Below, piece by piece: positions 5,224-25,705 of a DNA stretch of 64,000 bases. Position 1 is the first letter of the stretch; each line of letters starts with the position of its first letter. Both the position numbers and the translations under genes were made by a program. The stretch is from contig DASRSV010000022.1 in NCBI GenBank assembly GCA_035656255.1, forward strand, positions 16,630 to 80,629, read 5' to 3'. Origin of the DNA: Thermoplasmata archaeon (GTDB lineage Archaea; Thermoplasmatota; Thermoplasmata; Lutacidiplasmatales; UBA184). Under the pieces are notes generated by a model. It was not told the DNA's origin and made no database searches. It saw only the letters and a list, made by a program, of their open reading frames with translations.

Positions 5224-6044
5224 GACCGCTCCGCTGGCTCTACGGACCCCCGCCCGACCCGCCGGGGCCGACGCCAGACGAGGTCCGTCGCCACTGGGTC
5301 GCCTACCTCCGTGACCGTGTGGAGAACCACTGGGACAACATGGTCCTCCTTGACGGGATGAGGGGGTCCGGAAAGTCGACTCTCGCCTATCAGCTCGCCA
5401 CGGCCGTCGACCGGACGTTTCGCCCCGGGGACATGGAGTGGCGTATCTGTGGGTCCCCGGAGACCCTGAGCGCCGCCGTCGAACGGGCGACGGTGGGACA
5501 GGTGGTGGTGTTCGACGAGGCGATGATGGGGTTCCGAGGCGTGGACTTCATGAAGCGCCCGTTCCAGGAGCTGGTCTCGATCTTCACGGTGAATCGGTTC
5601 CGAGGCGGCACGTTCCTGGTCCTGTCGCCGTCGATCCACCGGCTGGGAGCCTTCTTCCGAGACGACATCGCGGACGTCTGGATCGCCATTCCGGTCCGGT
5701 CCCGGGGACGGGCGTTCGTCCACCTGAGGACGCCGGGGATCCGTTACGAGTACGGCGAGAAGAAGCCGATCTGGACGAAGGAGTCCCTGTTCAATCCACT
5801 GGAGTGGGGCGAGTCCCGGGGACCCGGTTGGGAGGAGTTCGACCGCATTTCCCGCGGCCGGAAGCTGGAGGTGATCCGGGAGTCGTCGGAACGACTGCGG
5901 AGGACTCGGAGTCCCCGCACTTCTCGCGTACCCGTGGTCTGCCCCCACTGCGGGCACAGCTGGCGAGCGTTACCGGCCCGCCTGTCCCGACAGTGTCCCT
6001 CATGTCTTCGACGATTCAGAATCAGAAATGGAGGACCGGATTAA
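5190..6044 (+). CDS. P-loop NTPase with C-terminal Zn ribbon, putative viral packaging/extrusion ATPase
   Basis: Walker A GMRGSGKST, Walker B VVVFDEA, downstream NRFRGG..LSP element, C-terminal CPHC...CPSC. Start moved to ATG 5190. Confidence 0.8.
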   Translation: MGDELHRRQPIGPLRWLYGPPPDPPGPTPDEVRRHWVAYLRDRVENHWDNMVLLDGMRGSGKSTLAYQLATAVDRTFRPGDMEWRICGSPETLSAAVERATVGQVVVFDEAMMGFRGVDFMKRPFQELVSIFTVNRFRGGTFLVLSPSIHRLGAFFRDDIADVWIAIPVRSRGRAFVHLRTPGIRYEYGEKKPIWTKESLFNPLEWGESRGPGWEEFDRISRGRKLEVIRESSERLRRTRSPRTSRVPVVCPHCGHSWRALPARLSRQCPSCLRRFRIRNGGPD

Positions 6045-6153
6045 CATCACCCTTGGGGCTCCGGGGTTGTCCCGGCAGCGTCTCTGACCCCACAGGGTGG
6101 CGCCAGGAGGCGGCCTGCGACAATCACACGGCCGGCAGTATCACCCGGACCTG

Positions 6154-6615
6154 TTACGGCGGTAGCGGATGCCGTTCGAGCAGCAGTCGACCGTGGAGGT
6201 TCGTCGCGGTGAGCACCTCCCCTTCCGTGACGCTCAGGACTAGGATTTCCCCGAGGGCGAGCTTGTGCGGCAGCACGGCAGCGGGAGTCCGCGCGCCAGA
6301 ATCGGGGGACGCGGGCACAGGTGCCGCCGCCACAGAGCGAGAGGTTCCAACTCTGACCGCCCGGGTCGGTCCTGAAATCCGGTACATCTTTTCATGACCG
6401 GACCTCATCGCAATGATGGCTCCGCTGCGGACGAGTAACCGGAGTGCGTGATACACCGAGTTCGGGTGGAACTTTCGTTGGCTCGCCTTCGCGATCCGCT
6501 TCGCGATGTCGGAGGTCGCGAGGCGGGCGCCCGAGCCCACGGACCGCAGCTCGGCCAGGATCCACTTCTGCGCACCACGGGGATCGGACCGGGACTTACT
6601 TCGCTTGGCCGCCAT
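6154..6615 (-). CDS. Winged-helix DNA-binding protein
   Basis: ILAEL...LATSDIAKRI...NSVYHALRLLVRSGAI...KMYRI fits a wHTH pattern. Start moved to MAAKR at 6615. Confidence 0.7.
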   Translation of the reverse strand: MAAKRSKSRSDPRGAQKWILAELRSVGSGARLATSDIAKRIAKASQRKFHPNSVYHALRLLVRSGAIIAMRSGHEKMYRISGPTRAVRVGTSRSVAAAPVPASPDSGARTPAAVLPHKLALGEILVLSVTEGEVLTATNLHGRLLLERHPLPP

Positions 6616-6879
6616 CGAGTCACGGAGTCGATTCCTGACGTAAATGTATCCGGTAGTCTCCTGCGATGCCGGAGCGTCCACAATGGTCTCGGCTCATGCT
6701 GAAGATCGGAAGGCGAGTACTCCGCATGCTCCAAGGAGTACGAGCCGACACCGGCCGGTAGAGAGCGGATGGGTCGCTGCTGTAGGCCCAGAACCAGGGA
6801 GGCTCGGGCCAGCGATGTTCAGCGAACGGAACCCGAATTGATCCGTCCAGTCGCGTGACCGAGATCCCGGCTTAGGGCC

Positions 6880-7116
6880 CTACGCGGTTCCGGGTGATAG
6901 CAGGTTCTTCGCCTTGAGTTCAGAACGGTGATCAGCGCAGACAGTCACAACGATGGGGCCGCCGACCACTTCCGGGCCGAGCGGGCGGTAGTTGGGGCCC
7001 GGCCGTACGCTCACCGGATTTATCGCCCCACCGCAGACATCGGATTCCGGTCCGTCTTGGCCGGCAACTGAAAAGGCGTGGGTCACTTGACATTGGGCGG
7101 TCACCGCGCCGGGCAT
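6880..7116 (-). CDS. Small Cys/His-containing hypothetical protein (78 aa)
   Basis: ATG start, three Cys plus CADH, no recognised family. Confidence 0.4.
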   Translation of the reverse strand: MPGAVTAQCQVTHAFSVAGQDGPESDVCGGAINPVSVRPGPNYRPLGPEVVGGPIVVTVCADHRSELKAKNLLSPGTA

Positions 7117-8241
7117 ACTTGGCCGCTAGGGTTCGGGCAATATAGCTTTGGAGCGACGGCTCTGGGAAGTCGCCGGTTGGGGCATGATCAAGGTCCGGGG
7201 CCTCCCTATCGCCTAGGCACCGGTATCCTTTTCCATCCGCTCGTCGTCTCGCTTCAGGCGCTGATTTCTGGCAGGGCGCTCGACGCATCGGAGCTAGAAG
7301 CAACTAAGTCCAACCTCGCCGGTTGGCGGCCGTCGGGAGGCAGAGCAACGCCAGGAACTGAGACTGAGCCCTGGAGTGGGCACCTTGAGGCGTTCGTCGT
7401 TCTGGCCGCAGCAGTCGTTCTCGCGGCGCTGCTTCAGCTCGTCGTATTTCTTCCACCGGGGTCCGTGTCTTGGCACTGGACGATCGGCGTGATTGCGGTC
7501 GGGTTCGGCCTCGTCGCGTTCATCTTCCTCGGAGGCTGGGACTGGGCCGCGGGACGCCTGGAAGAGTGGTCGATCCGTCGCCACATTCGCAAGCATCCGG
7601 ATCTAGTGAACGATCTGATTTCCCTGCTCGATCAACACGGGCAGGTGTTCGGATCCGGGAACTGGTTCCTGAACTCGGGCAACTCAGTGATGCAGAATTG
7701 GCTCGCGGCGAGCCTTCAGAACCCCTGCCCATTCACCCCGCAGCAGAAGGAGTCTGGGAACCAGGCCCACGCCCAACTCATGGCTTGGTCGAACGCCTCA
7801 GTCTACTGGTCCTACCTCAAGTCCGTCCTTGAGTGGCGGATCAAGCACCGGGCGTTCGTCGACTCCTACGAGTTTTACTGGGCTGCCAAAATGGTAGGCG
7901 TCGAAATCTCGAGGGGGTTGCTGAGCGCGTCAAACTTCGTCAACGCGATCCGCAATGCCGGTGTCGACAGGCTCCCCAACTACAATTCGGACAGATGGGA
8001 CGACTTCCGTAACCGTGCCGATGAGGTGGTCCGGCTCGCTCACGAAATCAATCGGCGGGGCGAACTGGAACTGGGCCTGAAACTGGATCTGAACTTCCAG
8101 TTCGTTCCTCCGCTTTACCCTCGACCGGGCGACCCTCCCCCTACGGCAGCGCCGCGGATGGGAGAAGTTCAACCCCCGGTTGAGTCCCCAGCATCGGCGC
8201 CGCCACCGACACCCACCGCCACCGGCCAGTCTGCCCGATAA
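7078..8241 (+). CDS. Hypothetical 2-TM membrane protein with soluble C-terminal domain (start uncertain)
   Basis: Two clear TM helices (AFVVLAAAVVLAALLQLVVFL; WTIGVIAVGFGLVAFIFLGGW), a protein-like C-terminal domain and a Pro-rich tail. The first ~90 codons may be non-coding. Confidence 0.65.
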   Translation: MGHLTLGGHRAGHTWPLGFGQYSFGATALGSRRLGHDQGPGPPYRLGTGILFHPLVVSLQALISGRALDASELEATKSNLAGWRPSGGRATPGTETEPWSGHLEAFVVLAAAVVLAALLQLVVFLPPGSVSWHWTIGVIAVGFGLVAFIFLGGWDWAAGRLEEWSIRRHIRKHPDLVNDLISLLDQHGQVFGSGNWFLNSGNSVMQNWLAASLQNPCPFTPQQKESGNQAHAQLMAWSNASVYWSYLKSVLEWRIKHRAFVDSYEFYWAAKMVGVEISRGLLSASNFVNAIRNAGVDRLPNYNSDRWDDFRNRADEVVRLAHEINRRGELELGLKLDLNFQFVPPLYPRPGDPPPTAAPRMGEVQPPVESPASAPPPTPTATGQSAR

Positions 8242-8699
8242 CAGCGTCTGGTTTGGAGATGCGCAGACAGCCCGGTAGAAACCGAAGCGGGTCAGGGTGT
8301 GTATGACCCCTCGGCCAAAACCGACTCTTTACCTTAGGAGTGGGGTAGTTGCACACCCGTGAAGTCCGGCGTGGGAGATGCCCCCCTCAGATAGGCGCCG
8401 AGTGTACCTCGACGAGCTTACTCAACCGACCTGACATCGAATCGAACTTGAACCGCGGCGCAATGCCCCGGCCTGCTCGCCTGAAGACTGAAGTGGCCAG
8501 CGGCGAGCCCAACCGATCCCTCTGACACCGCCTTGAGAGGAGGCCGAATGGAGCTTCGTCGCCCGGAGGCGTGACCTAAGCCCGCCCCTCGAATCCAATG
8601 CCGCGCGCTCGACCCATGCCGTGGGGGGGTGCTCGAAAGGCTGATTTCATACCCGACCGGGCCGCAGTTCTCTAATCCGTCGAGCTGAATTCGTAGGGC

Positions 8700-9206
8700 G
8701 TGATGCCAACCGGCCCTTTGGTCTTCCTCGCTTATCGAATCGACAATGGCGGCGAATGCGATCTCCTCTCGCAGAAGCTGAAAGTGGACCTTCGAGCTCG
8801 TGTTGTCACGGTACACCGCGGGGCGGATCGCTCCCCCGCCGGCGAGTTGATCGAGGACCATGTGTTCCCAGAAATCGAGCGGAGCGACGGCGTGATGATC
8901 CTATGGTCAGAGCCGGCTCGGACGTCTGCATGGGTGAATGCCGAGTACCGCTATGCCCAGAGGATTGGGCGACGAATTTGTCTTGTCCAGTTCCCCGGGA
9001 TTGATCCACCCGACGATTGGCCCCCCGGGCTCAAGCGGGTAAAGCTACGAGGAGTGACTTTCTCCTCGCCCACCCTGGACGGAGGGATTCGATTCTCAAC
9101 GACCGGACCCGCTTACGAAGAAATGCTTGCCGAGTTGGTGGAGTTCGCCCACCGGGCCATGTCGTTCAAGCGAGGGGTAGAACTTCCCCCTTGGCTCAGC
9201 ACCTGA
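8700..9206 (+). CDS. Stand-alone TIR-domain protein
   Basis: VFLAY (cf. VFISY) at the N-terminus, VMILWS, and SAWVNAEYRYA with the conserved TIR catalytic Glu. Confidence 0.8.
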   Translation: MMPTGPLVFLAYRIDNGGECDLLSQKLKVDLRARVVTVHRGADRSPAGELIEDHVFPEIERSDGVMILWSEPARTSAWVNAEYRYAQRIGRRICLVQFPGIDPPDDWPPGLKRVKLRGVTFSSPTLDGGIRFSTTGPAYEEMLAELVEFAHRAMSFKRGVELPPWLST

Positions 9207-9330
9207 ACGATTCGGAGCGTGTCGCGCGCCTTTGCGTACGCTGTAATCGATCCGGGATTCGCGGAATCGGACCGGAGGAGCGCGCGTGAACACAAGTCGG
9301 TTAAGCCAAGGTCCCCCTACAGGCTCCTGA

Positions 9331-10572
9331 ATGCCGAAGAAAGCGGATGCGAAAGGGAGCGCGCTCATAGACTCTCTTCGCCGTTGGGTCACGGCCAAAC
9401 ACGGCACCGCGCCCCTAGAGAGTGCGACTGCGATTCCGGGCGCAAACGGCTCCGATCACCCCTTCATCATCACGTCAGTTCCAATCGCTGACCTGAGGTT
9501 CGAGGACCATCAGTACAACCCGCGCCACCCGAGTCTCGGGCGCGTGAACGAGCTGCGCGCGTCGGTGCACCAACTCGGGCTCCTGTCCCCACTTACCTGC
9601 GCGTACGTCGCAGGCGGAACTGAGGAGGTCGTCCTCATCGATGGACGCCATCGATTCGACGCGCTTCGCGCTCTGTCCGCAGAAGACAAGGAATGGGCGA
9701 AACGAGCGCGTGTGGATCTGAAGGTCTACTACGGCCTGACTAAGAGCGACCTCTTCCAACTCGCCACCTACCTGAACCGAACCCGGAAATCACTCGCCAA
9801 GGGAGAGTACTACAAGGTCGTCGTTCACATTTTCGAGGAGAAGAAGAAGGAGTTGGAGGCGCTGGACGGCAGGCCCCGAACTGAGAAGGAAGTTTTCCAT
9901 GCGGTCAGTTCCCATACCATCTCCGATAGAGATTTCGATCTCTCCATCGGCCGGATCGTCGGAATGGTTGCGTTCGATGAGGAGGAGGATGAAGCATGGT
10001 ATCCCATGGTGGGAACTCGCCAACAGGAACGTATCCGTGGACCACCGTCCCTGAGCGGCTACTGCCCCCTGACCGCCGGGAATCTTGCAGCCTTCCTCGC
10101 CTATCTGTGCAACCCCAAGCCGTACCCCGACAAAGGAGCGCTACGAGACACGGAAATCGGGAATGTCCTACATCTCGGCGCGATATTCCGAAAGCTGATC
10201 ATCGACAAGCCGGTCAAGTCCTATGAGACGGCTACAGGAACCAGCATCGCATGCAAACACTGGTGCCTCGTTGCATTCGGTAGCCTGCTCCACGAGAGCA
10301 GACTGTTCGCTCCGCAGGTACGAGCGGGGAGGTCCCCCTTAGCTGAGGCCGAGCCAGCCTGGGACCGCTTCACGAAGGTGATTGCCGAATACCGCGAAAT
10401 AATGGACGCGCAGGCCGCAATCGTCCGCAGGTACAAGAGCACCGACGAGCCCGGTTTTCTGAAAGACGCCTGGAGCTATCAAACCCAACGCGACCAGGTC
10501 AAGATACCTATGCAGAAGGCGTTCAAAGAACGCGGCATCTCCGACCTTGCCCGGGCGGTTTCCGCCAAATGA
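9331..10572 (+). CDS. ParB/Srx-fold N-terminal domain protein (DGQHR/DndB-like)
   Basis: YNPR, ELRASV..LGLLSPL, VLIDGRHRFDAL and KVYYGL...LATYLNRTRKSL. A TTAAG element lies ~28 nt upstream. Confidence 0.75.
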   Translation: MPKKADAKGSALIDSLRRWVTAKHGTAPLESATAIPGANGSDHPFIITSVPIADLRFEDHQYNPRHPSLGRVNELRASVHQLGLLSPLTCAYVAGGTEEVVLIDGRHRFDALRALSAEDKEWAKRARVDLKVYYGLTKSDLFQLATYLNRTRKSLAKGEYYKVVVHIFEEKKKELEALDGRPRTEKEVFHAVSSHTISDRDFDLSIGRIVGMVAFDEEEDEAWYPMVGTRQQERIRGPPSLSGYCPLTAGNLAAFLAYLCNPKPYPDKGALRDTEIGNVLHLGAIFRKLIIDKPVKSYETATGTSIACKHWCLVAFGSLLHESRLFAPQVRAGRSPLAEAEPAWDRFTKVIAEYREIMDAQAAIVRRYKSTDEPGFLKDAWSYQTQRDQVKIPMQKAFKERGISDLARAVSAK

Positions 10573-11897
10573 CCTCAGATCAAGGCGCACTGCTCGATTG
10601 CCTCGGTGTGCCGCCTAGTCATTCCGATCAAGTTCTTGGAGCATGGGCGCCTTCCAACCCCACCCTTCGAATGCGTTCGATGCTCGAACGTCTCGGGCCC
10701 GAGGCATCGGACCCTAGCTGGCCAGTCGGCCAGTCGCAGGATCGACTTCTGAAGTGGGGACTCTACTCGCCCTTACAGCTCGTCGCCCAGCAATGCGGAG
10801 CCGCCGCGCGTCCCACAATGGAATCCGACTTTCCTTTCTTATTCGGGTTCATGGGGTTGGTTACGCAGGGCCTGATTCATTTTCGGAAGCCCAAACCCCC
10901 CTCGGGAGCTTGGCCCCCCAAGGATCGCAAGGAGGCTCGTCGTTATTCCGCGCTCTATCAATCGGTCTTCCGACTTCGGGAACAACGAGAAGAGCGGGAG
11001 CCGCTGTCTCTCGAGGTCAGGTTGCCGCTCATCACAGATCCCTCACCGCTTCTGCCGCTAAAGAGGTTCGCGCAAGTCGTTGGGCGGGGGGTCGGCGTGG
11101 CAAACGGAGATCGGTTATCGGCACCAACTTCCCCTTCGGCACAGGCCGTCAAATTATTCCGTAACCACGAGGGGACGCCGAGTAATCGGCTCTACCGGCT
11201 TGACTCGGAATACGAGTACATTAGCCCAAAGGACTTGTCGTTAACCTTGCGACGGGACGGGCTGCTCACTCTGGCTTCCAGGTACAACCCGCTGCTCGAT
11301 TTCTACGATGGGGGGTGGCATGTCGTCGATATGGAGGGTGGGCGTCGGGCCATAGATCGACTCTTATCCGCGCGCTTCGGTGGCACTCAGATCGATTCAG
11401 ACCTGCCGAAGTTTCTGCTCAGGCTTGCTTACCACATGGCGACCCATTGGCACGGCGGGATACTCGCGGTGGTTGATGAAAAAGCCGCGGAGAAGCGCCT
11501 TCACCCGGCTCTGCCGGAGTCCAGGGCCATGACACTGCTCATCCGGAAGGCAGCGGGCGCGAAGACGAAGGAATTCCGGATCACCGACGTCGACAAGCCA
11601 GTGGACCCGGACCTGCCCCACAAGCCAAGCTGGGGGCTTGGACGCTTGTTCCTCACCCTCGCGATACAGGATGGCGCCGTGCTCTTTGCGCCGGACGGTC
11701 GGTTCTTGTCTGCCTCTCGATTCGTCGCCGACAACGACCAAAACATAGGCAGTGGTGGAGCGGGTGCCAGGGCCGCCCTCGCCTTGTCCAAGTGTGGGTT
11801 GGCGATCAAGATTAGCGCAGACGGCGCGATCAAGGTATTCGCTCGCGCCGAGAACGGCAGGCTTCTCGTGCCCGCAGCTGGTCTCCGGATTCGATAG
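10569..11897 (+). CDS. Protein with C-terminal DisA_N/diadenylate-cyclase-like domain and uncharacterised N-terminal region
   Basis: HGGILAVV, IQDGAVLF (DGA motif) and GAGARAALALS..LAIKISADGAIKVF matching the DAC fold. The RHR motif is degenerate. ATGA overlap with the ParB-like gene. Confidence 0.7.
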   Translation: MTSDQGALLDCLGVPPSHSDQVLGAWAPSNPTLRMRSMLERLGPEASDPSWPVGQSQDRLLKWGLYSPLQLVAQQCGAAARPTMESDFPFLFGFMGLVTQGLIHFRKPKPPSGAWPPKDRKEARRYSALYQSVFRLREQREEREPLSLEVRLPLITDPSPLLPLKRFAQVVGRGVGVANGDRLSAPTSPSAQAVKLFRNHEGTPSNRLYRLDSEYEYISPKDLSLTLRRDGLLTLASRYNPLLDFYDGGWHVVDMEGGRRAIDRLLSARFGGTQIDSDLPKFLLRLAYHMATHWHGGILAVVDEKAAEKRLHPALPESRAMTLLIRKAAGAKTKEFRITDVDKPVDPDLPHKPSWGLGRLFLTLAIQDGAVLFAPDGRFLSASRFVADNDQNIGSGGAGARAALALSKCGLAIKISADGAIKVFARAENGRLLVPAAGLRIR

Positions 11898-11900
11898 GCT

Positions 11901-13640
11901 CTAGGACGCGGCGAAGCTGCGGCAAATGTCATGTGGCTCGTCGACGATCCGCGCGTCGAACCCCTCGACAACCGGCCCGAATGTCGCGCCGTAAAGACGG
12001 GGCTGAAGGTACGCAACGATTCTCCGATAGTGCTTTCCGATGACGCCGAGAACGGTCGCGGTCCGGATTCGGAGGAACTCTGTGTGGCGTGGGTGAATGG
12101 CGTTGGTCAACGGGAAGTCATATCCCATGATCGCGGGGTTGCCCTCGTGGTCCCAATGGACGGGGCCGTAAAGCCCGCTCAACGTGATCCGATCGAAGTC
12201 GTCGCCTTCCACCCACCCTTCGGATTCCAGATGAGAGAGGATCCTGCGGTGGACTTTGCTTCGGGCGTACGGTCGGGAGCGCGAGCAGGGTAGCAAGAGC
12301 AATGCGGCCTCGGCGCATGGCTCAAACCCCTTGAGCGGAAACGCGTACTCCTTCGGTACAACAGATCCCTTGGTGGCCGCGGGGACTTGAGCAGAGGCGT
12401 GCGGCGCCGCTAGCCCGAGTGCAACTCTGGTCCGCCACCACGAGAGGTTGTGGAGAGCCAGAGCGGCCCAAACATCGGATCGATTGACTCGCCTCTCACC
12501 AATCATGAGGGGACGATAGGGAGGTCGCGTCAGGAGCTCGACGACGTTCTCCCTCCCAACTCCCATCAGGAGCGTGCATCCCGGGCAAGAACATCCAGAG
12601 TCTTCGCTCGGGTCGAAGTCGCGATAGTTGCCGATCCGATGATCAAAGACACGCTTTCGGAACGCCGCCTGAACATAGGTCGAGTTGTCGAACGATAGGG
12701 GCCGACAATCTGGGTGTCGCCTGACTAGTTCCCCAACCACGGCCTCTCCAACACCGAAGAGATGCAGAGGGGTGTTGTCGGCGGTTGTCCGCGCCATCCA
12801 GGAGAGTACTGCCTCGCAGTTCTGGAGGATGCGTTGCGGCTCCCTTGACAGAGGAACCTGACTCCCGAGTGCAATCCCGAGAGCCGGCGAGGAAAACGCG
12901 CCGACGGGTAGGGCGTCTTCAAGCGATCGGGCGCACCACGTGACTTCCTCCGCGGACCTGCCGTGGACCGCCAAGTACGCAGTCGGGGTACTGTTCGATC
13001 CGATCACCGCACTGGCCAGCCATGCCGAGTTACGCACGCTGGCAATGATGTGGCGCCGCGCCTGTCTCGGGCTGGCCCCGCGCGGGATAGGTGAGTCGAG
13101 GCTTGCGATTCGCGACGGACCAAACTTGAGTTGCATTTCGAGGACACTCTCTGGGGAGAGATCCATGCCCCACGGGGAAAGGTCGATTTTGTCCCCGTGA
13201 AGAATTTGAAACCCACCACTATCCAGGAAGACATCTCCGGACGGCCCCAGAAGTTCCTCGAGTTCCCGTTGGATTCGCACGCCACCGTACCACGGCGCGA
13301 ACCACGCCTCCCACGCTCGGTCGCTGAGTTCGTAGGCCGTGAAGTGCAGTGCTTGGACCATGAGGCGAGGCGGCCCATCGACTCCCCTCAGCCCGGCTTT
13401 GATGGCTTTCCAGACGCCGCCGTTCCTCGTGAGTCCGGGTGGCCCTGTGAGCAGGTGGACAACGGGGAAGAAGGATACCGGGCCCCCGCCTTCCTGCATG
13501 GGGGGGGATGAGAGGGCCACCGTTTGAGCGCTTCTGTCTCGCGGCGGGGCGAGCGAGGGTTTCCCCGGGCCGCTAGATTGGGCGACTGTCCCGTGGGAGT
13601 GCGCTCTGTCAAACTCAATCGGCCGGGACTGGGACCTCAT
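11901..13640 (-). CDS. tRNA-guanine transglycosylase (TGT/DpdA)-like enzyme fused to a C-terminal DUF5591/ArcS-like domain
   Basis: VFLDSGGFQ, HLFGVG, SFDNSTY, Zn motif CSCPGC...HNL, C-terminal LLLLPCSRSRPYARSKVH. Start is probably ATG 13640 or 13499 rather than 13898. Confidence 0.8.
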   Translation of the reverse strand: MRSQSRPIEFDRAHSHGTVAQSSGPGKPSLAPPRDRSAQTVALSSPPMQEGGGPVSFFPVVHLLTGPPGLTRNGGVWKAIKAGLRGVDGPPRLMVQALHFTAYELSDRAWEAWFAPWYGGVRIQRELEELLGPSGDVFLDSGGFQILHGDKIDLSPWGMDLSPESVLEMQLKFGPSRIASLDSPIPRGASPRQARRHIIASVRNSAWLASAVIGSNSTPTAYLAVHGRSAEEVTWCARSLEDALPVGAFSSPALGIALGSQVPLSREPQRILQNCEAVLSWMARTTADNTPLHLFGVGEAVVGELVRRHPDCRPLSFDNSTYVQAAFRKRVFDHRIGNYRDFDPSEDSGCSCPGCTLLMGVGRENVVELLTRPPYRPLMIGERRVNRSDVWAALALHNLSWWRTRVALGLAAPHASAQVPAATKGSVVPKEYAFPLKGFEPCAEAALLLLPCSRSRPYARSKVHRRILSHLESEGWVEGDDFDRITLSGLYGPVHWDHEGNPAIMGYDFPLTNAIHPRHTEFLRIRTATVLGVIGKHYRRIVAYLQPRLYGATFGPVVEGFDARIVDEPHDICRSFAAS

Positions 13641-13711
13641 AGTCAGCCTTTCGAGCACGACCCTCCGGCCTCGGGGCGGGCCTGGCGCACGATTTGACAG
13701 GGGGAGTTTGC

Positions 13712-13942
13712 TCACGGAGTTGTGGCGGACCGCCAACCCCACGAGTAGGCCAGCCGCTGGAGAAACCACAGGGTCGAGAACCCGGGAACGAGCCGAAGCG
13801 GGATTCGATTGGACTGGAATCCTCGAAGCTCCGCCCAGTAATCCCGTAAGAGGGCCCCAGGCGTCAGGGGTCCCGGAATCATGGAGGCGGAGTGCCACTC
13901 TGCAGCCTGCCCGTCCGTCCGGTCGACCTGAAGATATGTCAT
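13712..13942 (-). CDS. 76-aa hypothetical protein coupled to the glycosyltransferase
   Basis: ATG overlaps the GT stop (ATGA). MTYLQVDRTDG...FSTLWFLQRLAYSWGWRSATTP. Confidence 0.45.
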   Translation of the reverse strand: MTYLQVDRTDGQAAEWHSASMIPGPLTPGALLRDYWAELRGFQSNRIPLRLVPGFSTLWFLQRLAYSWGWRSATTP

Positions 13943-14655
13943 GACGGTTCTACCGGGCCGAAGATTCGGTCCGTCGCCTGTCGACAGCCCCGTCCGTAGT
14001 TGCGGAAGGTCCGCAAGAAGTCCAACACGCCGGGCCGGAATTCGTGCCGCACGAGCGCGTCGGGGACGTACTTGAACGTCCATCCCGCGCGGCGAAGCCG
14101 TATGCTCAGGGCAACGTCCTCCCCGCCGGGAGTCGGGATCGAGCCGTCGAACCCCCCCACGGCGAGCGCCTCACGACGAGAGTAGGCGCAGTTGGCGGTC
14201 ACGAGGTAGAGCATCGATGGCGGAGGCTCAAGGATTCGGTAGTACGCGTAGTACCGAGAGATCCAATCGATATCGGTGGGGAGGACCCGCCCCCCGGCGC
14301 CGACGATTCGGCGGGAGGTGTCGATGGGGCTGATCAAGGACCCCAACCAGTCGGGATCCACGATGCAATCGTCGTCCGCGAAGGCTACAATGTCCGCCGA
14401 GGTGGACTCCATACCTAAGTTGCGCCCGTGGCCAGGACCTGTGCCGTCGGTCTGCGAGACGATCACCGGATCGAATGAGTGGGGGGCGGCACCCCATTCT
14501 CGGAGAAACTCCGGAGTGGAGTCCCGCGATCGGCCATCCACGACGACTACCTCGTCCGGGCGGAGGCCTCGGAGCCGGTCGACAGACCCGAGGAGTCGTT
14601 CGAGCCGGATTTGTCGATCCCTAGTGGGAATCACTAGCGCGACGCTCCGCGTCAT
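13939..14655 (-). CDS. Family 2 (GT-A) glycosyltransferase
   Basis: VALVIPTRDR, VVVVDGRSRD, RNLG, FADDDC (DxD), GGFD, EDVAL. ATG 14655 overlaps the epimerase stop. Confidence 0.9.
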   Translation of the reverse strand: MTRSVALVIPTRDRQIRLERLLGSVDRLRGLRPDEVVVVDGRSRDSTPEFLREWGAAPHSFDPVIVSQTDGTGPGHGRNLGMESTSADIVAFADDDCIVDPDWLGSLISPIDTSRRIVGAGGRVLPTDIDWISRYYAYYRILEPPPSMLYLVTANCAYSRREALAVGGFDGSIPTPGGEDVALSIRLRRAGWTFKYVPDALVRHEFRPGVLDFLRTFRNYGRGCRQATDRIFGPVEPS

Positions 14656-15578
14656 CCCGATGGGTGCCCCCGCATCCACAGGATCGTTCGCTCGAGGCCC
14701 TCCTCCAAATCGACGCGGGGCTGGTACCCGAACGCCTCCTTCGCCTTCGAGATGTCCAGCCAAGTCCGGAGCCCCTCCTCCCCCCGTCGATACTTCCACG
14801 AGGGGTCGAACTCGACCCTTCCCGACCCGACCTTCCGCACCACCGAATTGCCAAGGTCGAGAATCGAAAGTTCCCTGCCGCTCGCGATGTTGAACGTCCC
14901 CGAGGCACCCGCGTCAAGCGCCATTCGAACGCCGTCTACGAAGTTCGTGACGAAGTTCAGGTCACGCGTGGGGTGGCCCCCAAGGACAGGTTCGGCGGGG
15001 AATAGGAGGGGCTCGTTGCGAAGTGCGCGGCGGACGAATTTGGCGACGACCTGGGCCTTAGGGTCGCTGCGAGGACCGTACCCCATGCCGCTCCGGACGA
15101 TCAGGGCCTTGCTGCCAAAGGCGCTCCGGACCAGCACCTCTGCCGCGGCCTTCGACGCCGCGTACGGGGACTGGGGGTTCGGTAAGACGGTTTCCGGGGT
15201 GGGATAGGCAACCGCCGGACCGTACACGGTTTCGGATGATGCATAGAGGAATGTCCTGAGGTCACCTCCGAGTTGGAGCGCGGCTTGGATCAGGTTGATC
15301 GTGGCGACGACGTTGTCCCGGTAGGTCCCGATCGGATCTTCGAACGAAGGCTCGACGCGCGCTTGCGCCGCGAGATGAACTATCACCTCGGGGGAGATCC
15401 GGCGGACCAGGCTGCTGAGCCCGTCGGGGTTGCAGAGGTCTGCCAGATGGTAGACGACGCCGTCGACGCGTTCGAGGGGCGGACGCCGATCCACCCCGTG
15501 GAGCTTATCGCGCCCTGAGCGGGCCTCGAGGAACGAAGTGCCGATGAAGCCCGAACAACCCGTGAGCAGAATCTTCAA
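14652..15578 (-). CDS. NAD-dependent NDP-sugar epimerase/dehydratase (extended SDR)
   Basis: ILLTGCSGFIG, HLAAQARV, ASSETVYG, PYAASK, YGPR, RDLNFV. Confidence 0.92.
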   Translation of the reverse strand: MKILLTGCSGFIGTSFLEARSGRDKLHGVDRRPPLERVDGVVYHLADLCNPDGLSSLVRRISPEVIVHLAAQARVEPSFEDPIGTYRDNVVATINLIQAALQLGGDLRTFLYASSETVYGPAVAYPTPETVLPNPQSPYAASKAAAEVLVRSAFGSKALIVRSGMGYGPRSDPKAQVVAKFVRRALRNEPLLFPAEPVLGGHPTRDLNFVTNFVDGVRMALDAGASGTFNIASGRELSILDLGNSVVRKVGSGRVEFDPSWKYRRGEEGLRTWLDISKAKEAFGYQPRVDLEEGLERTILWMRGHPSG

Positions 15579-15622
15579 CGCCGCAGCCCCTCCCAGTCCC
15601 TCGGGAGGGTGTTCCCCAATTT

Positions 15623-16270
15623 CTACCCCGCTGAGGCCTCGGCGCTCTCATCGGCCATCTGTAGGGTGCCCCCCGAAGGGTGGACCGATTGGTCCCGCCT
15701 TAGCACCGAGCGAACGGCTCCCAGTTTGAGGTTCATTTTCTGGGAGATCATTCGAAGGCTCTCGCCTCCGGCTCGGCGGGCTTGGACCTCCCTCGCAATA
15801 CGCTCCGGGATTCTCCGAGGTGCCCCAAACTTCTTGCCCAGCGCGCGAGCCCGCGCCACGCCCGCTTGGGTTCGTTCGAGGATGAGCTCGCGCTCGAATT
15901 CTGCCAGGGCTGCGAGCATGTTCCGCTGCAGACGACCGCTTGGGGTGGAGGTGTCGATTCCCTGGTCGATGACAATCACGCGGGCTCCTGCCGCCTCAGC
16001 GTCGTCCCAGAACCGCAGGATCATACCCAACGAGCGGCCTAGCCGGTCCATCTTGGAAACTACGATCGTATCGAACTCGCCCGAGGCGAGCCGCTCCCGA
16101 AGTCGATCAAGCTCCGGTCGGTTGTCCCGGATGCCTGAGATTCCGTCGTCCCGAAAGACCGCGACATCCGGCCAGCCTCTCGCCTGGCAGTAGGCGGTGA
16201 GCTGACCGACTTGGGCCTCCGTCGACTGTTCCTTGGTCGAGACGCGAGCGTAGATCGCGACCCGAGTCAT
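15623..16270 (-). CDS. Serine recombinase (resolvase/invertase family) with C-terminal HTH
   Basis: AIYARVSTKEQ, SG..DNRPEL, SKMDRLGRS, LAALAEFERELILERTQAG. ATG 16270 overlaps the MTase stop. Confidence 0.93.
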   Translation of the reverse strand: MTRVAIYARVSTKEQSTEAQVGQLTAYCQARGWPDVAVFRDDGISGIRDNRPELDRLRERLASGEFDTIVVSKMDRLGRSLGMILRFWDDAEAAGARVIVIDQGIDTSTPSGRLQRNMLAALAEFERELILERTQAGVARARALGKKFGAPRRIPERIAREVQARRAGGESLRMISQKMNLKLGAVRSVLRRDQSVHPSGGTLQMADESAEASAG

Positions 16271-17643
16271 GCTGGGGCCTCTTCCCGCGTTGCAACGTCG
16301 GCGACCCCGGCGGCCGAGCGGTGGCGAGAGAGAATCACGTAGTCGGGGTTGAGTTCGATACCGACGGATCTGCGGCCTAGTCGGCGCGCGACCGCGAGGA
16401 CGGTACCGCTTCCCGCGAAGGGGTCGAGAACGAGGCAAGGGACGGTGCCGGTGGTCTCACAGGAGCAGCGTTTGCGGAACCCCAAGTCAACCCGCCGGTA
16501 GCTCCCATCGTGCCACCCGGGGGCGTTGGCGACGGGGGCGCGGCCCGACACCAGCGGAGCCTCGAGTTTCTGCGCGTGGCCGATGGCGCCCCCAACGGCC
16601 CGGACTTCCCTCGACCAGGGAGTCCCGCACTTGGCGCACGCCCCGCGCTCGGAGGTTCCCGCCAGGATGCAGAGCTCGGGGAGCTTCTCCGGGAACGTGG
16701 CGAAGTGGGCCGCCCGGTAGGGCTGGGTCGGGATCCACCAGACCGACCGGAGGTTGCGACCTGAGGGGGTCGTGTTTCGCAACATTGGGAATCGCCGAAA
16801 GTCCCCCTCGGGATGCTTCGAGTGGGAGCCGCGATTATCGGTTGGGTTTGGTAGATGATGTCGGAGCCTTTGGAGCGTGCTCTCCTGAAGGGGCTCGCGG
16901 ACCGCGTACGTGTCGTAGAAGTAGCGTCTCGACTTCGTGAGAAGGAAGACCGAGTCGTGGGCCCGGGTGGGCCGATCCTTGACCGCCTCCGGCATCGGAT
17001 TCGGCTTCGCCCAAACACAATCGGACCTAAGCCACCAGCCCCGGCGTTGCAGCTCGAAAGCGACTCGCCAAGGAATCCCCACGAGATCCTTCGGCTTCAG
17101 TCCGGGCGCCCGCTTGTCGATCCGACCGGCCTGTTCGGCCCCCGTGTGGTTCCGGTTGGATAGCGTCGAGGCCTTCCATCGCTTCTCGCCGGTGAGTCCA
17201 GATGGGTGGGTGGCATAGGTATCGCCGAGGTTCAGCCAGAGCGTCCCGTCGGGCCGCAAGACCCGGCGGACTTCGTCGAAGACGCCCGCGAGATGCTCCA
17301 CGAATCCTTCGGGGGTGGGCTCCAAGCCGAGCTGGCCGAGCCACCCTCCGCACTTCCGGCAGGTTGAACCGCCCTGCGAAGCGTCGTAAGGGTCGCTCTC
17401 ACTTGGCCGAGCGGGCCCACCGTTTGTGCCATCCGCATCGCGCTGGCGCTGCGGCTGCGCCAGCTCCCATTCGTGGTTACAAGCCGCCAGTCCGCCCCAT
17501 CTGATCGGTCGGAGCCCGTAGTCTCGAAGTCCCCAGTACGGGGGGGACGTGACAATGCAGTGGATCGAGTCGTGCGGGAGGCAGCGCAGGATGTCCAGAA
17601 CGTCCCCCTCGAGGATGACCGGAGTCGGGTCATCCGGGATCAC
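16267..17643 (-). CDS. Site-specific DNA methyltransferase (N4-C/N6-A, beta-type motif order), copy 2
   Basis: VTSPPYWGLRDY N-terminal and DPFAGSGT C-terminal. GGAGG before GTG 17643, which overlaps the upstream stop. Confidence 0.92.
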   Translation of the reverse strand: MIPDDPTPVILEGDVLDILRCLPHDSIHCIVTSPPYWGLRDYGLRPIRWGGLAACNHEWELAQPQRQRDADGTNGGPARPSESDPYDASQGGSTCRKCGGWLGQLGLEPTPEGFVEHLAGVFDEVRRVLRPDGTLWLNLGDTYATHPSGLTGEKRWKASTLSNRNHTGAEQAGRIDKRAPGLKPKDLVGIPWRVAFELQRRGWWLRSDCVWAKPNPMPEAVKDRPTRAHDSVFLLTKSRRYFYDTYAVREPLQESTLQRLRHHLPNPTDNRGSHSKHPEGDFRRFPMLRNTTPSGRNLRSVWWIPTQPYRAAHFATFPEKLPELCILAGTSERGACAKCGTPWSREVRAVGGAIGHAQKLEAPLVSGRAPVANAPGWHDGSYRRVDLGFRKRCSCETTGTVPCLVLDPFAGSGTVLAVARRLGRRSVGIELNPDYVILSRHRSAAGVADVATREEAPA

Positions 17644-20183: not shown

Positions 20184-20303
20184 CCGACCACCCCCGGCGA
20201 CGTTTCAAGGACCGCCCGCATGGCCCTGGTGGCGGCGGGAGTCTGGGCCTGTTCAGCCCGATTCCGAGCCGGTTTTCGGCTGGGTTCTATAAGAAAGTGG
20301 TTA

Positions 20304-20330
20304 TGGGCCCGGACGGATTCGAACCGACGA
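20304..20330 (-). repeat. Degenerate duplicate of a tRNA 3' end (att-like site)
   Basis: tgggcccggacggattcgaaccgacga matches tgggccgggacggattcgaaccgtcga at 22538 (25/27), covering the T-arm and the acceptor 3' strand only. Confidence 0.8.
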
Positions 20331-22260: not shown

Positions 22261-22537
22261 CCGACCGTGAATTCGGTCGACGCTCGGTGCGGCTAAAGAC
22301 CTCTCCAACGAAGCTGCGACGCAGCCGGCGGCACGGGTTCCATGTCCCCGTTCAACGACGCGGCGGACCGAGCCGCGCCCTCCCTCCAACGCCCTCTGAG
22401 GGCGTGAAGCTCAGCTACCGAAGTTCGCCGCTCCTCGATCTGAACTCGGAGCGCAGAATGCGACCTAGCGGTTCGAGGCCGCGGGCGGGTGAGTTACCCG
22501 TGATTTCGCGAGGCAAGAGGGCGAATATCCCTCTCGA

Positions 22538-22610
22538 TGGGCCGGGACGGATTCGAACCGTCGAGCTCCGCGTTGTAAGCGCGGCGTCCTCACCGCTAGA
22601 CCACCGGCCC
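22538..22610 (-). tRNA. tRNA-Val(TAC)
   Basis: GGGCCGG/CCGGCCC-A acceptor stem, anticodon arm CCGCG-CTTACAA-CGCGG, T-loop GGTTCGAATCC. Confidence 0.95.
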
Positions 22611-22732
22611 ATCGGCGGGACCGAGTCCGGTACAAAGTTACTGCTGGCCACCGGACTGCGTCAGACCGTGGTCCCGCCACGATGCGGCTCCCGGTCCCTC
22701 GAAGATCCCGGTCTCTCCCGAAGGAGGGACCC

Positions 22733-23439: not shown

Positions 23440-25311
23440 CTAGCGAGAGGAACCGACCTGAGCCGTCGGCGCGCCCGGAGTCGCGGACCCACCGGCACGA
23501 TGGCGCACGGTAACCGCGCGCCCGCGCCGGAGTTCGGTCATCAGTCGACCCGGAAGTTCCGCCTCGCCCACGGCGAACGGGGCGTTGTCGCGGACGAGCG
23601 TGACGGCGTCGCCCACGCGGATCGCCGGGTCCGCCTCCGCTACGCCCCCCACGAACAGGTCGCCCCGGAGCTCGAAACCGGGGGCGACGGTCACCGCGAG
23701 CGCCCCGGCGGAACCTGCCCGGCGGGCTCCCGGGACGGTGAGCTGGAACAGTCCGCGCTCTTCCCGCCAGGTGGCGAGATCGACGCCCCCTCCGTCCGAG
23801 AGGCGTTGGAACCACGGCCGCCCGTGCAGCCGAACCGGCGGAGCGAACAGCGACTCGGCGAACGCGCGTCCGAACTGGAAGGCAGCGACCTCACGGAGCT
23901 CCTCGAGAACCGTCGAGATCGGGCCCGGGCGTTCGGTCGAGTTCAGGGCGGGGTCGGCCCCGAGGTCCCGACGCAGGCGGTCGATCGACCCCGGGGCGGT
24001 CGGGCGGTCGCCTTCGGACGTCCATGCGGCAGCGAACTCGGTCGGGATCCCATCCGTGATGAAGCCGTACTCTTGGGCATCCAGGTGGACGACGACCCGG
24101 TCGTACCGACCGCGGTCGAGGAGGTGCCTCAGGAGGCCGACGACACGCTCGCGCTCTTCCTGAGCCCAGGTGTGGGTGACGGGAATGTCGTAGTGGCGCG
24201 CGGGGTAGACGTCCTCGAGCTCGCGCGGGACGAGCCCGAGAGGGGAAGTGACGGATACGACGTGGATGCGATGGGGAGCAGCGAGCCCCTCCCACGCCCG
24301 TGCAATAGCGCGGTGCGTTCGCGAGTTCCGGTACGGCTTCGTCCGGGAGCAGGGGACGACGAGGAGCACCTTCTTCGAAGCCGGCGGGACGTACCGCCTC
24401 CGCAGTCGGTCGATGAAGCGGGCGACCTCAGGCCGTCGATGCGACTCGGCGAACACGTAGGAGACGGGGGCGGAAGCGGTGACCGGGGTTCGTTCTTCGA
24501 GGAGGTCCGCGAGCTCTCGGTCGGCGTAGCGGAGCAGTTCGGCGAGGGCTGGCTCGGCGACCTGACGGGCTTCGGCGAGGTCGCGCAGGCGATGGTGGCT
24601 TGCCGCCGCGCGGACGAAGCCGATCTCCTGGGACATCCGGTCGACGGCGCACCGGATCCGCCCGCTCGAGCCCCCGGAGGAGCACGTCGGACACACCGCG
24701 TCGGAGAACGTCGAGGCTTCGGCGGAGATGGGACCGAGCTGGGCGTCGAGGTGGAACGCACGGAGCGCCCACGCCACGGCTTCGTGGTTCGTTACGAGGT
24801 CGACTCCGAGGTAGGCGAGCAGGGCGAGCCGATGGGGCAGCGCGACGCGGGGGATCCAGAGGAGCGGATGGGAGCCCAGACGCCGGCGGATGTCGCCGAC
24901 TGCCAGGACGAACGGCCGCCCCTCGTCGTAGAGCGCGGCCGCGTTCGCGAGGACGACCGCGTCGGGCCGGCCGGCCCGAGCATTCTCCCAGCCCGCATCG
25001 GGAAGCGGCCAATGGATCGATACGACCCCCTCGCCGACCTTCGCGGCCTCCGTCGGAGGCGCGCCGACCTCCGGCGCCGGGATCGGAAAGTCGAGCACGA
25101 ACCGGGAGCGGCCGTCGGTGAGCACGTTCTCGCGATGAAGCATCGCCCATCCGGCGGGCGAACCCGGCTCGATACCCAGCCCGGCGGAGTCGAACGGCAC
25201 TCCCTCGACCCCGCGGACCGGGAGCAGCCCCGGTGTCGCGATGCGGAACGGACCGAGGTCGGCCCGGCTTGGGGTCGAGAGTCCTTCCAGCCGCTCGACC
25301 TCCCGGGGCAT
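23440..25311 (-). CDS. arcS: Archaeosine synthase subunit alpha (TGT-paralog domain + DUF5591 + PUA)
   Basis: LVVPCSRTKPYRNSRTH, VTSPLGLVPRELE..YPA.HYDIPVT, C-terminal PUA (DPAIRVGDAV..GEAEL). Start moved to 25311. Confidence 0.88.
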   Translation of the reverse strand: MPREVERLEGLSTPSRADLGPFRIATPGLLPVRGVEGVPFDSAGLGIEPGSPAGWAMLHRENVLTDGRSRFVLDFPIPAPEVGAPPTEAAKVGEGVVSIHWPLPDAGWENARAGRPDAVVLANAAALYDEGRPFVLAVGDIRRRLGSHPLLWIPRVALPHRLALLAYLGVDLVTNHEAVAWALRAFHLDAQLGPISAEASTFSDAVCPTCSSGGSSGRIRCAVDRMSQEIGFVRAAASHHRLRDLAEARQVAEPALAELLRYADRELADLLEERTPVTASAPVSYVFAESHRRPEVARFIDRLRRRYVPPASKKVLLVVPCSRTKPYRNSRTHRAIARAWEGLAAPHRIHVVSVTSPLGLVPRELEDVYPARHYDIPVTHTWAQEERERVVGLLRHLLDRGRYDRVVVHLDAQEYGFITDGIPTEFAAAWTSEGDRPTAPGSIDRLRRDLGADPALNSTERPGPISTVLEELREVAAFQFGRAFAESLFAPPVRLHGRPWFQRLSDGGGVDLATWREERGLFQLTVPGARRAGSAGALAVTVAPGFELRGDLFVGGVAEADPAIRVGDAVTLVRDNAPFAVGEAELPGRLMTELRRGRAVTVRHRAGGSATPGAPTAQVGSSR

Positions 25312-25357
25312 GGGCCGAGGAGCAGGGGAACCGACCGTAAGCGGTTCGGCCGGCGGG

Positions 25358-25705
25358 TTACGTCTTCTCCGCGGCTTTTCGCCCCCGTCCTCGCGACGGG
25401 GCACCGGCGGGGAAGAACGCCTCCCAGGCGGTCACGAGCTGCTCGCGCCGCTCGGCGCCGGCTTCGGATCGGCCCCGCTTGCCGAACATCGGGTCGTGGG
25501 TATCCCGGACCGAGCGGAGGAACTCCCCCGGGTTCTCGCTCGCTCGCTCGAAACCGTACAGGATGAGCTGGCGCAGGAAGCTCGAACGGCCCCGCCAACC
25601 GATGCGCCGTCGGACGAGGGGGTTGAGGTGGCGCTTCGCCATGCGCCACACGTCGTTGGTGGTCCGGTAGTCGCGCGCGGAGAGTCCGATCATGACCTGC
25701 GGCAT
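25358..25705 (-). CDS. Hypothetical basic protein (115 aa)
   Basis: ATG 25705 in the ubiA-arcS gap. Protein-like composition, unlike the upstream part of the track ORF. Confidence 0.5.
   Translation of the reverse strand: MPQVMIGLSARDYRTTNDVWRMAKRHLNPLVRRRIGWRGRSSFLRQLILYGFERASENPGEFLRSVRDTHDPMFGKRGRSEAGAERREQLVTAWEAFFPAGAPSRGRGRKAAEKT

Follow-up and report, generated by a model that had tools for sequence, protein, structure and literature searches.

Does a short run of sugar genes lying directly upstream of a tRNA-guanine transglycosylase (TGT) gene decorate the base inserted by that enzyme, or do the two simply share a mobile element? The question arises from a 64,000-nt stretch of a Thermoplasmata archaeon genome (assembly GCA_035656255.1, contig DASRSV010000022.1, positions 16,630 to 80,629 of the forward strand), hereafter called the window, in which an epimerase gene, a gene for a family 2 glycosyltransferase (GT2) and an open reading frame (ORF) of 76 amino acids (aa) precede a TGT gene. 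A first-pass annotation had proposed the former, with the base installed by the TGT as the acceptor. On balance we favour a different answer; i.e., that the three genes form an autonomous, horizontally mobile glycosylation cassette, composed of an epimerase and a two-piece GT2, which lies beside a repeat-bracketed TGT module without being part of it. In what follows, L-numbers denote loci compared with the window and P-numbers denote homologous proteins; most metagenomic contigs are short, and counts of cassette neighbours are limited to loci with enough flanking sequence.

The three genes run head to tail on the minus strand in the order epimerase, GT2, 76-aa ORF (Table 1). The epimerase TGA overlaps the GT2 ATG as ATGA, and the GT2 TGA overlaps the ATG of the 76-aa ORF in the same way; both junctions are real, as had been annotated, and the second is identical in all seven loci examined for it (listed below) and is thus not a product of chance. 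The TTG start of the epimerase is also in use in the 95% identical copy of L003, and an epimerase gene lies directly 5' of the GT2 gene in the window, L003 to L009, L014, L105 and L106. Its product matches the Pfam models Epimerase (PF01370; 136.9 bits, 9.6e-40) and GDP_Man_Dehyd (7.4e-42), holds GCSGFIG and YAASK as its GxxGxxG and YxxxK motifs, and has short GalE-type UDP-glucose 4-epimerases as closest solved relatives (7ys8 at 8e-37, 4zrm and 2p5u). The galE model of NCBIfam scores it at 89 bits against a cut-off of 262, while the dTDP-glucose 4,6-dehydratase model scores it higher (124.5 bits), yet still under its own cut-off. As every NCBIfam equivalog cut-off was missed, we call the enzyme GalE-like and no more.

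The second product matches Pfam PF00535 (Glycos_transf_2) at 70.4 bits against a cut-off of 23.3 (2.2e-19). Two motifs, D94-D95-D96 and G177-G178-E179-D180, are invariant across 20 homologues, and from family knowledge we take DDD and GGED to be the metal/nucleotide-sugar and catalytic-base motifs, respectively. The protein is not truncated, given that most close homologues are 230-260 aa long. Its best NCBIfam match is MftF (TIGR03965; 133.4 bits, where the cut-off is 280); EpsD comes next, and archaeal Agl models follow at low scores (AglJ, 29 bits against 325; AglG, 45 against 440). Most genes found by a GT2-profile scan of genome contigs were distant and GT2/MftF-like (25-45% identity). 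The highest 19-residue Kyte-Doolittle means, 0.67 in the GT2 and 0.87 in the 76-aa product, confirm the annotated lack of a transmembrane segment in the GT2. The step from there to a soluble acceptor, however, is a weak one, since many GT2s acting on lipid-linked glycans also have no transmembrane helices.

What, then, is the 76-aa ORF? It had been described as an orphan, with the added suggestion that it might be a detached C-terminal tail of the glycosyltransferase; the former description does not hold, while the latter is borne out. A separate tail ORF, 73-82 aa in length and in six loci 76 aa, with an N-terminus of MT followed by Y or F, is present in seven loci (the window, L003, L004, L005, L105 with 82 aa, L106 and L107), across which the GT2s are 53-97% identical; L120 (73 aa) and L122 (75 aa) likewise have a separate tail ORF. 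Compared among the window, L004 and L005, tail pN/pS is 0.38-0.48 in its own frame against 1.18-1.75 in the other two frames, and by this measure the ORF is under purifying selection. The tail has no family match in Pfam, NCBIfam, PHROGs or PADLOC. A single-sequence search of 1.84 billion representative proteins gave 12 matches only, among them seven stand-alone ORFs of 62-82 aa and one fused protein. The latter, P0191, is a 253-aa GT2 fragment in which tail homology spans residues 201-252, right after an NYGxGC motif. More divergent fused tails were missed by that search and are revealed by pairwise alignment, in which the tail aligns to the C-termini of P0080 (322 aa, E 4e-8) and P0089 (377 aa, E 1e-7). 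Comparison with GT2 homologues, as the first-pass annotation had suggested, thus finds the tail fused in proteins of 311-377 aa, beside the shorter majority of close homologues noted above.

In an AlphaFold2 model of the fused P0080 (pLDDT 91.7, pTM 0.90), a floppy linker at residues ~250-273 leads into two tail helices (275-291 and 296-319; pLDDT ~95). The tail is basic (pI 9.7-11.3) and aromatic-rich, and ends in the invariant residues Q62, R63, A65, Y66, G69 and W70 (Q-R-x-A-Y-x-x-G-W). Judged from alignment and model together, the 76-aa ORF encodes, as a separate protein, the helical hairpin that ends the GT2 chain in fused homologues. Could it instead be the by-product of a frameshift or assembly error, with the GT2 a decaying, functionless pseudogene? 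Fused homologues do exist, and the split falls exactly at the low-confidence linker of the fused proteins. Against such an accident, the identical split and ATGA overlap recur in seven independent assemblies, down to 53% GT2 identity; the tail is constrained in frame; and the GT2 keeps its catalytic motifs invariant and the length usual among its close homologues. Conservation and pN/pS lead us to reject this origin, which we hold to be extremely improbable. By the same comparisons the split is ancient and maintained, and the product is a two-piece enzyme rather than a recently frameshifted or broken one.

Does the cassette belong with the TGT that follows it? Downstream lies a TGT that carries an ArcS-type DUF5591 domain in the same chain (ORF 13898-11901, minus strand); its gene faces opposite-strand genes for a 442-aa protein, a 413-aa ParB-like protein and a TIR-like protein. 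The cassette had been described as leading into the TGT, but the only start codon that would join the two by an overlap is GTG 13715, as GTGA with the tail stop. This candidate start was rejected: the window and L001 (86-90% identical; TGT ~90% by tblastn) are alignable only from ~13660 downstream, relatives are not homologous upstream of that point, and L003 diverges at ~13645. TGT homologues are ~530-580 aa long. From these alignments the TGT start is likely to be 13640 or 13499, and therefore a spacer of 71-212 nt, containing a conserved repeat, separates it from the tail.

That repeat is an element of ~75 nt that begins at the tail stop codon (Table 1). It follows the tail in L003, L004 and L005, and lies directly after the recombinase gene in L001, which has no sugar cassette; the L003 sequence parts from that of the window exactly at its end. 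An exact 16-mer, GTGCTCGAAAGGCTGA, is found both at 8629-8644 (plus strand) and at 13643-13658 (minus strand), such that the 5-kb TIR/ParB-like/442-aa/TGT block is bracketed by inverted repeats; it adjoins an invertase-like serine recombinase (PHROG 'DNA invertase', 5e-56). An Rfam scan of 8000-16500 at E <= 0.1 gave no match, and the element is thus not a known RNA. It is a probable recombination boundary between cassette and TGT module, and the ~75-bp inverted-repeat site could be one at which cassettes are inverted or exchanged.

Across loci, each module occurs without the other. (i) Among five TGT-DUF5591 relatives (L001, L002, L116, L117 and L118), a ParB-like neighbour is present in all five and the 442-aa gene in four, while GT2, tail and epimerase genes are found beside none. 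(ii) L001 shares the methyltransferase-methyltransferase-recombinase backbone of the window, yet passes from recombinase to repeat to TGT with no sugar genes between. (iii) L003 carries a cassette 95-97% identical to that of the window, with a different gene (464 aa) after the repeat. (iv) The cassette stands without a TGT in L005, L105, L106, L107, L120, L121 and L122; among the ten longer cassette loci (the window, L003 to L005, L105 to L107, and L120 to L122), a TGT-family neighbour is present only in the window and L004. (v) Since these two share a methyltransferase-recombinase-cassette backbone (~70% identity), they are not independent observations. (vi) Of 401 genomes in the host phylum, 2 have the tail family and 4 have TGT-DUF5591, with both in this genome only, and the host's five congeners have neither. 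Because each is found without the other, and given this phyletic pattern, cassette and TGT module are, as judged from gene content, separately mobile.

Two side observations concern the TGT slot. The 464-aa gene of L003 (5145-6539, minus strand), which fills the place of the window's TGT module, encodes a protein without a match in Pfam, NCBIfam or PADLOC; its C-terminus, RSAYVH, holds an Rx4H motif, a sequence feature that suggests a HEPN-type RNase. The TGT-DUF5591 protein of the window keeps the TGT-type motifs FLDSGGFQ, LHLFGVG and CSCPGC, and its DUF5591 part holds PCSRSRPYARSKVH, which fits the ArcS motif PCx3KPYx2Sx2H with R in place of K.

The second TGT-family neighbour bears on the acceptor in its own right. 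After the cassette, L004 carries (5311-8703) genes for a 333-aa TGT, an OGG-like protein, a QueC-like protein, a ThsB-type TIR protein and an 8xMP membrane protein. The like-named PADLOC models recognise the TGT and QueC of this locus (6e-16 and 7e-34), and in PADLOC these names belong to ancillary genes of type IV CBASS (cyclic-oligonucleotide-based antiphage signalling systems). Cap10 and Cap9, with the OGG-like Cap11, are reported to attach 7-deazaguanine to protein and not to nucleic acid (bioRxiv 10.1101/2025.04.06.647259). No CD-NTase was recognised in the L004 cargo, which resembles the accessory genes of a type IV CBASS joined to genes for a TIR protein and a membrane protein. It is thus a possibility that the TGT-family genes of these elements modify protein rather than DNA.

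How does the proposal of a glycosylated deazaguanine fare? Under it, the GT2 would glycosylate the 7-deazaguanine installed by the adjacent TGT-DUF5591, in DNA or another target, by analogy with the eukaryotic GT2 QTGAL (B3GNTL1), whose name and role as galactosyl-queuosine synthase we confirmed (PMC11755703). In its favour, the cassette lies on the same strand as, and directly upstream of, non-orthologous TGTs in the window and L004; the host has QueC, such that preQ0 would be available; and the surroundings are DNA-centred, with two DNA methyltransferases and a recombinase. Glycosylated preQ0-derived bases are also known among small-molecule natural products, with HuiG of huimycin as the chemical precedent (bioRxiv 10.64898/2026.04.15.718813). 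However, QTGAL and the window enzyme compare at the level of the GT2 fold only, and QTGAL acts on the queuosine cyclopentenediol of tRNA, whereas the island has no queuosine-synthesis genes and its TGT has an ArcS-type domain. Bases of the preQ0 and archaeosine type are not known to carry a hydroxyl like those of that cyclopentenediol. Together with the distribution of the two modules, the common backbone of the two TGT-associated loci, the repeat that parts cassette from TGT module, and the Cap10/Cap9-type character of the L004 genes, this makes the deazaguanine reading improbable, and the claim of a TGT-inserted base as acceptor is not upheld.

Structural comparison lends that proposal a further point, and takes it back in part. 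The best Foldseek E-value (2.7e-15, at 23-24% identity) belongs to the group of AvpGT, NucGT and ScaGT (9jma, 9jn3), soluble single-domain GT2s of ~300 aa. AvpGT adds glucose to the 3'-OH of the 7-deazapurine nucleoside tubercidin, and does not accept 2'-deoxynucleosides (PMC11959488). The match is no better than those of many GT2s, which lie within two orders of magnitude of one another by Foldseek; the TM-score is just 0.58-0.63 (rmsd > 8 A), sequence similarity is confined to the nucleotide-binding N-terminal half, and AvpGT comes 8th by profile. The enzymes of this group are also unsplit and have no partner epimerase, unlike the window GT2. Top TM-scores to the fused P0080 model (0.64-0.69 over 326-383 columns) go instead to PcManGT of Pyrobaculum calidifontis (6yv7; 0.68) and hyaluronan synthases (7sp8, 8smp), with viral synthase-like proteins also in this range. 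This suggests, at the level of the model, that the tail helices correspond to the interface helices of those enzymes. PcManGT and hyaluronan synthases nonetheless have transmembrane helices and a QxxRW motif, where the window enzyme has no transmembrane segment and Q-R-x-A-Y-x-x-G-W, and identity is 10-19%. Neither the AvpGT nor the membrane-GT2 signal is decisive for the acceptor.

The neighbourhoods of more distant relatives point elsewhere. In L106, L107 and L120 (GT2 51-55% identical), the tail stop overlaps or abuts a 433-aa gene of the radical-SAM (rSAM)/SPASM type, and a second rSAM/SPASM gene and a gene for a 233-237-aa protein are also present downstream. In L025, a Promethearchaeota metagenome-assembled genome (MAG; GT2 41%), the order is NYN, rSAM/SPASM, GT2, rSAM/SPASM, PD-(D/E)XK nuclease; an NYN RNase gene also flanks the cassette in L106 and L122. 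Further neighbours encode SLFN/AlbA, PIN, RHS, type I restriction-modification, Abi_C, MazG-like, HNH and GIY-YIG proteins. As an observation in itself, a set comprising GT2, a 73-76-aa tail, a ~433-aa rSAM/SPASM protein, the 233-237-aa protein and a ~338-aa rSAM/SPASM protein recurs in archaeal MAGs, including Promethearchaeota (Table 1), often accompanied by an NYN RNase and at times by an epimerase. The 233-237-aa protein gives a weak His-phosphatase match and lies between the two rSAM genes in L120; no family or defence-system match was found for the gene set. In L122, a 587-aa protein (8973-10736; DUF7664 plus GIY-YIG_3) is encoded right after epimerase, GT2 and tail; it matches the PADLOC candidate PDC-M57B at 1.8e-38, has a weak DpdC/YaaA-like region, and has MazG-like, NYN, HNH and HATPase_c_3 genes in its vicinity.

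These neighbourhoods raise the possibility that GT2 and tail are the glycosylating part of a conflict or biosynthetic system not yet described, whose target would be a soluble small molecule, peptide or nucleotide, much as MftF works with the rSAM/SPASM enzyme MftC, and that the window copy is a reduced, stand-alone defence or counter-defence cargo. MftF is the top named family for the GT2 domain (1.1e-38), and the best annotated plasmid matches are mftF genes at 30-35% identity. Relatives of the window GT2 are coupled to rSAM/SPASM genes too, translationally so in L106, L107 and L120, with the same set in L025. The adjoining NYN RNases, the defence-type neighbours (the PDC-M57B/DpdC-like GIY-YIG protein among them), the lack of a transmembrane segment, and the absence of the family from IMG/VR (below) fit such a system as well. 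Set against this are the lack of an rSAM/SPASM or NYN partner in the window, the absence of any PADLOC-DB v2 family at E <= 0.01 for epimerase, GT2 or tail, and the tendency of defence islands to gather unrelated cargo, whereby neighbourhood alone is a weak guide.

Membership of MftF itself was rejected on score, context and C-terminal region. The window GT2 reaches 133 bits where 280 are needed; the island has no mftA-E, rSAM, MftA/B-like or MftD/E genes; and MftF consists of one polypeptide (~470-515 aa) that ends in a long hydrophobic region, while the window enzyme comes in two pieces without a transmembrane segment and has an epimerase as partner. When compared by hhalign, the tail does not resemble the MftF C-terminus (probability 0.5%). 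For these reasons the system just outlined appears rather unlikely as a reading of the window copy. As a side observation, a gene for a CDGSH iron-sulfur protein adjoins both the cassette in L105 (9181-9870) and the true mftF of Thermomicrobium roseum (L123, 5535-6137), possibly by coincidence.

Other glycosyltransferase systems offer looser parallels. Polyprenyl-phosphate GT2s of the DPMS/GtrB/AglJ type have a C-terminal transmembrane anchor, which GT2 and tail do not. GtrABC seroconversion modules and the GT-A enzymes of archaeal viruses are, like the cassette, mobile-element GT2s without other glycan genes, and there is a weak PHROG match to GtrB-like O-antigen conversion (1.4e-6); the cassette, however, has no GtrA flippase, GtrC partner or transmembrane helices, and its family is missing from IMG/VR and almost so from INPHARED. 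Neither the tail profile, the GT2 profile nor TGT-DUF5591 found any relative in 2.9 million IMG/VR contigs, and tblastn against INPHARED phages gave just two weak matches (32-34% identity).

We therefore return to the autonomous cassette as our favoured reading, and to how it would work. The GalE-like epimerase would supply an epimerised NDP-hexose donor to an inverting GT2, which we infer to be built from the 238-aa catalytic GT-A domain and the 76-aa basic, aromatic-rich hairpin. The two ATGA overlaps would afford coupled, roughly equimolar synthesis, and the hairpin would complete the acceptor side of the enzyme. Carried on an integrated-element backbone, behind a pair of DNA methyltransferase genes and a serine recombinase gene and just outside the ~75-bp inverted repeat, the cassette would operate independently of the TGT module.

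As to what receives the sugar, we tentatively place first a glycoconjugate at the cytoplasmic membrane face; i.e., a glycan carried on a lipid, or the glycoprotein pathway of host or virion. Counted for such an acceptor are the top TM-scores to interface-helix GT2s, the basic aromatic tail, and the presence of fused homologues in classical Wzm/Wzt export loci (L020, L023), an arrangement seen only at 38-40% identity. Close behind, at a similarly modest likelihood, comes a soluble acceptor of the kind proposed for the rSAM-linked relatives (a small molecule, peptide or nucleotide), and a deazaguanine-bearing target is one to which we attach little weight.

Several points tell against the autonomous reading and its membrane-side acceptor. 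The co-orientation of the cassette right upstream of a TGT-family gene in the window and L004 is more than unrelated genes would lead one to expect, though the backbone is shared. In no locus is the cassette joined by a flippase, oligosaccharyltransferase, glycan polymerase or second glycosyltransferase, an unusual lack if its function were in surface glycans. The neighbours in distant loci are of nucleic-acid or conflict type (NYN, PIN, PD-(D/E)XK, GIY-YIG/DpdC-like, type I restriction-modification and rSAM/SPASM), and the best Foldseek E-value belongs to a soluble GT2 acting on a 7-deazapurine nucleoside. The first-pass annotation had named surface-glycan loci without a TGT as the setting that would speak against its own proposal; the nearest homologues are indeed mostly without a TGT, but they do not sit in standard surface-glycan loci.

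A bolder reading is that the split GT2 clade, which usually has an epimerase of its own, provides the sugar-adding part of undescribed conflict systems acting on nucleobase-derived products, with rSAM/SPASM plus NYN, a Cap9/Cap10/Cap11-like set, or TGT-DUF5591 as alternative partners, and that in the window a hexose is placed on a TGT-DUF5591 deazaguanine adduct. We consider this a long shot. If true, it would represent the first sugar-bearing 7-deazaguanine mark outside tRNA queuosine and a new class of nucleobase hypermodification.

Table 1. Features of the proposed glycosylation cassette and its boundaries in the window, with the recurrent rSAM gene set of other loci
Feature	Position	Strand	Basis
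Epimerase: NAD-dependent NDP-hexose 4-epimerase-like short-chain dehydrogenase/reductase, 308 aa, TTG start	14652..15578	-	Pfam, PDB relatives, motifs
GT2 catalytic subunit (GT-A, inverting), 238 aa	13939..14655	-	Pfam PF00535, conserved motifs
76-aa basic helical-hairpin subunit, detached GT2 C-terminal tail	13712..13942	-	Conservation, pN/pS, homology to fused C-termini
Intergenic leader, recombinase stop to epimerase start: AT-rich AGAAATT box and GGGAGGGG Shine-Dalgarno-like run	15579..15622	-	Read from sequence; near-identical in L003
Conserved ~75-nt non-coding element, from tail stop codon on; cassette/TGT-module boundary	13640..13714	-	Alignment with L001, L003, L004, L005
Inverted copy of ~75-nt element, far end of 5-kb TIR/ParB-like/442-aa/TGT module	8570..8645	+	Repeat search (32 nt, 81%) and full-length alignment
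Recurrent rSAM set	L106 8001-12070; L107 3373-7456; L120 8001-11904; L025 8568-14020

The surroundings of the cassette are those of an integrated element. The intergenic leader upstream of the epimerase is a putative promoter. On the same strand, upstream of the cassette, lie the serine recombinase gene (16438-15623) and two N6_N4 DNA methyltransferase genes, and G+C is lowered in the stretch that holds the cassette (60-66% against ~70%). Just outside the low-G+C stretch are the host ArcS gene (23440-25404) and a tRNA-Val gene (22536-22611). As had been annotated, no other glycan genes occur within the island, and the host's own GT2 genes cluster on a different contig. A 28-nt copy (93% identical) of the tRNA-Val 3' end is found 2.2 kb from the intact gene (20303-20330 versus 22537-22564) and probably represents an ancient duplication of an attachment site; a search of the 17 kb to the left of the window yielded no third copy. 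Between the fragment and the intact tRNA-Val lies a gene for a sequon-rich surface protein of 661 aa.

Ultimately, the pairing of an epimerase with a GT2 is ordinary in itself, while the stable GT2 split with strict ATGA coupling affords a natural system in which to probe the role of the C-terminal helices in acceptor choice. The clade is sporadic and mobile, and lies in the company of defence-type genes and rSAM/SPASM operons, not in glycan loci; its acceptor may thus be an unconventional one. More broadly, a gene can come to lie next to a TGT on a mobile element simply through the way cassettes are arranged, and our findings thus urge care with 'glycosylated deazaguanine' proposals, whose number is growing.

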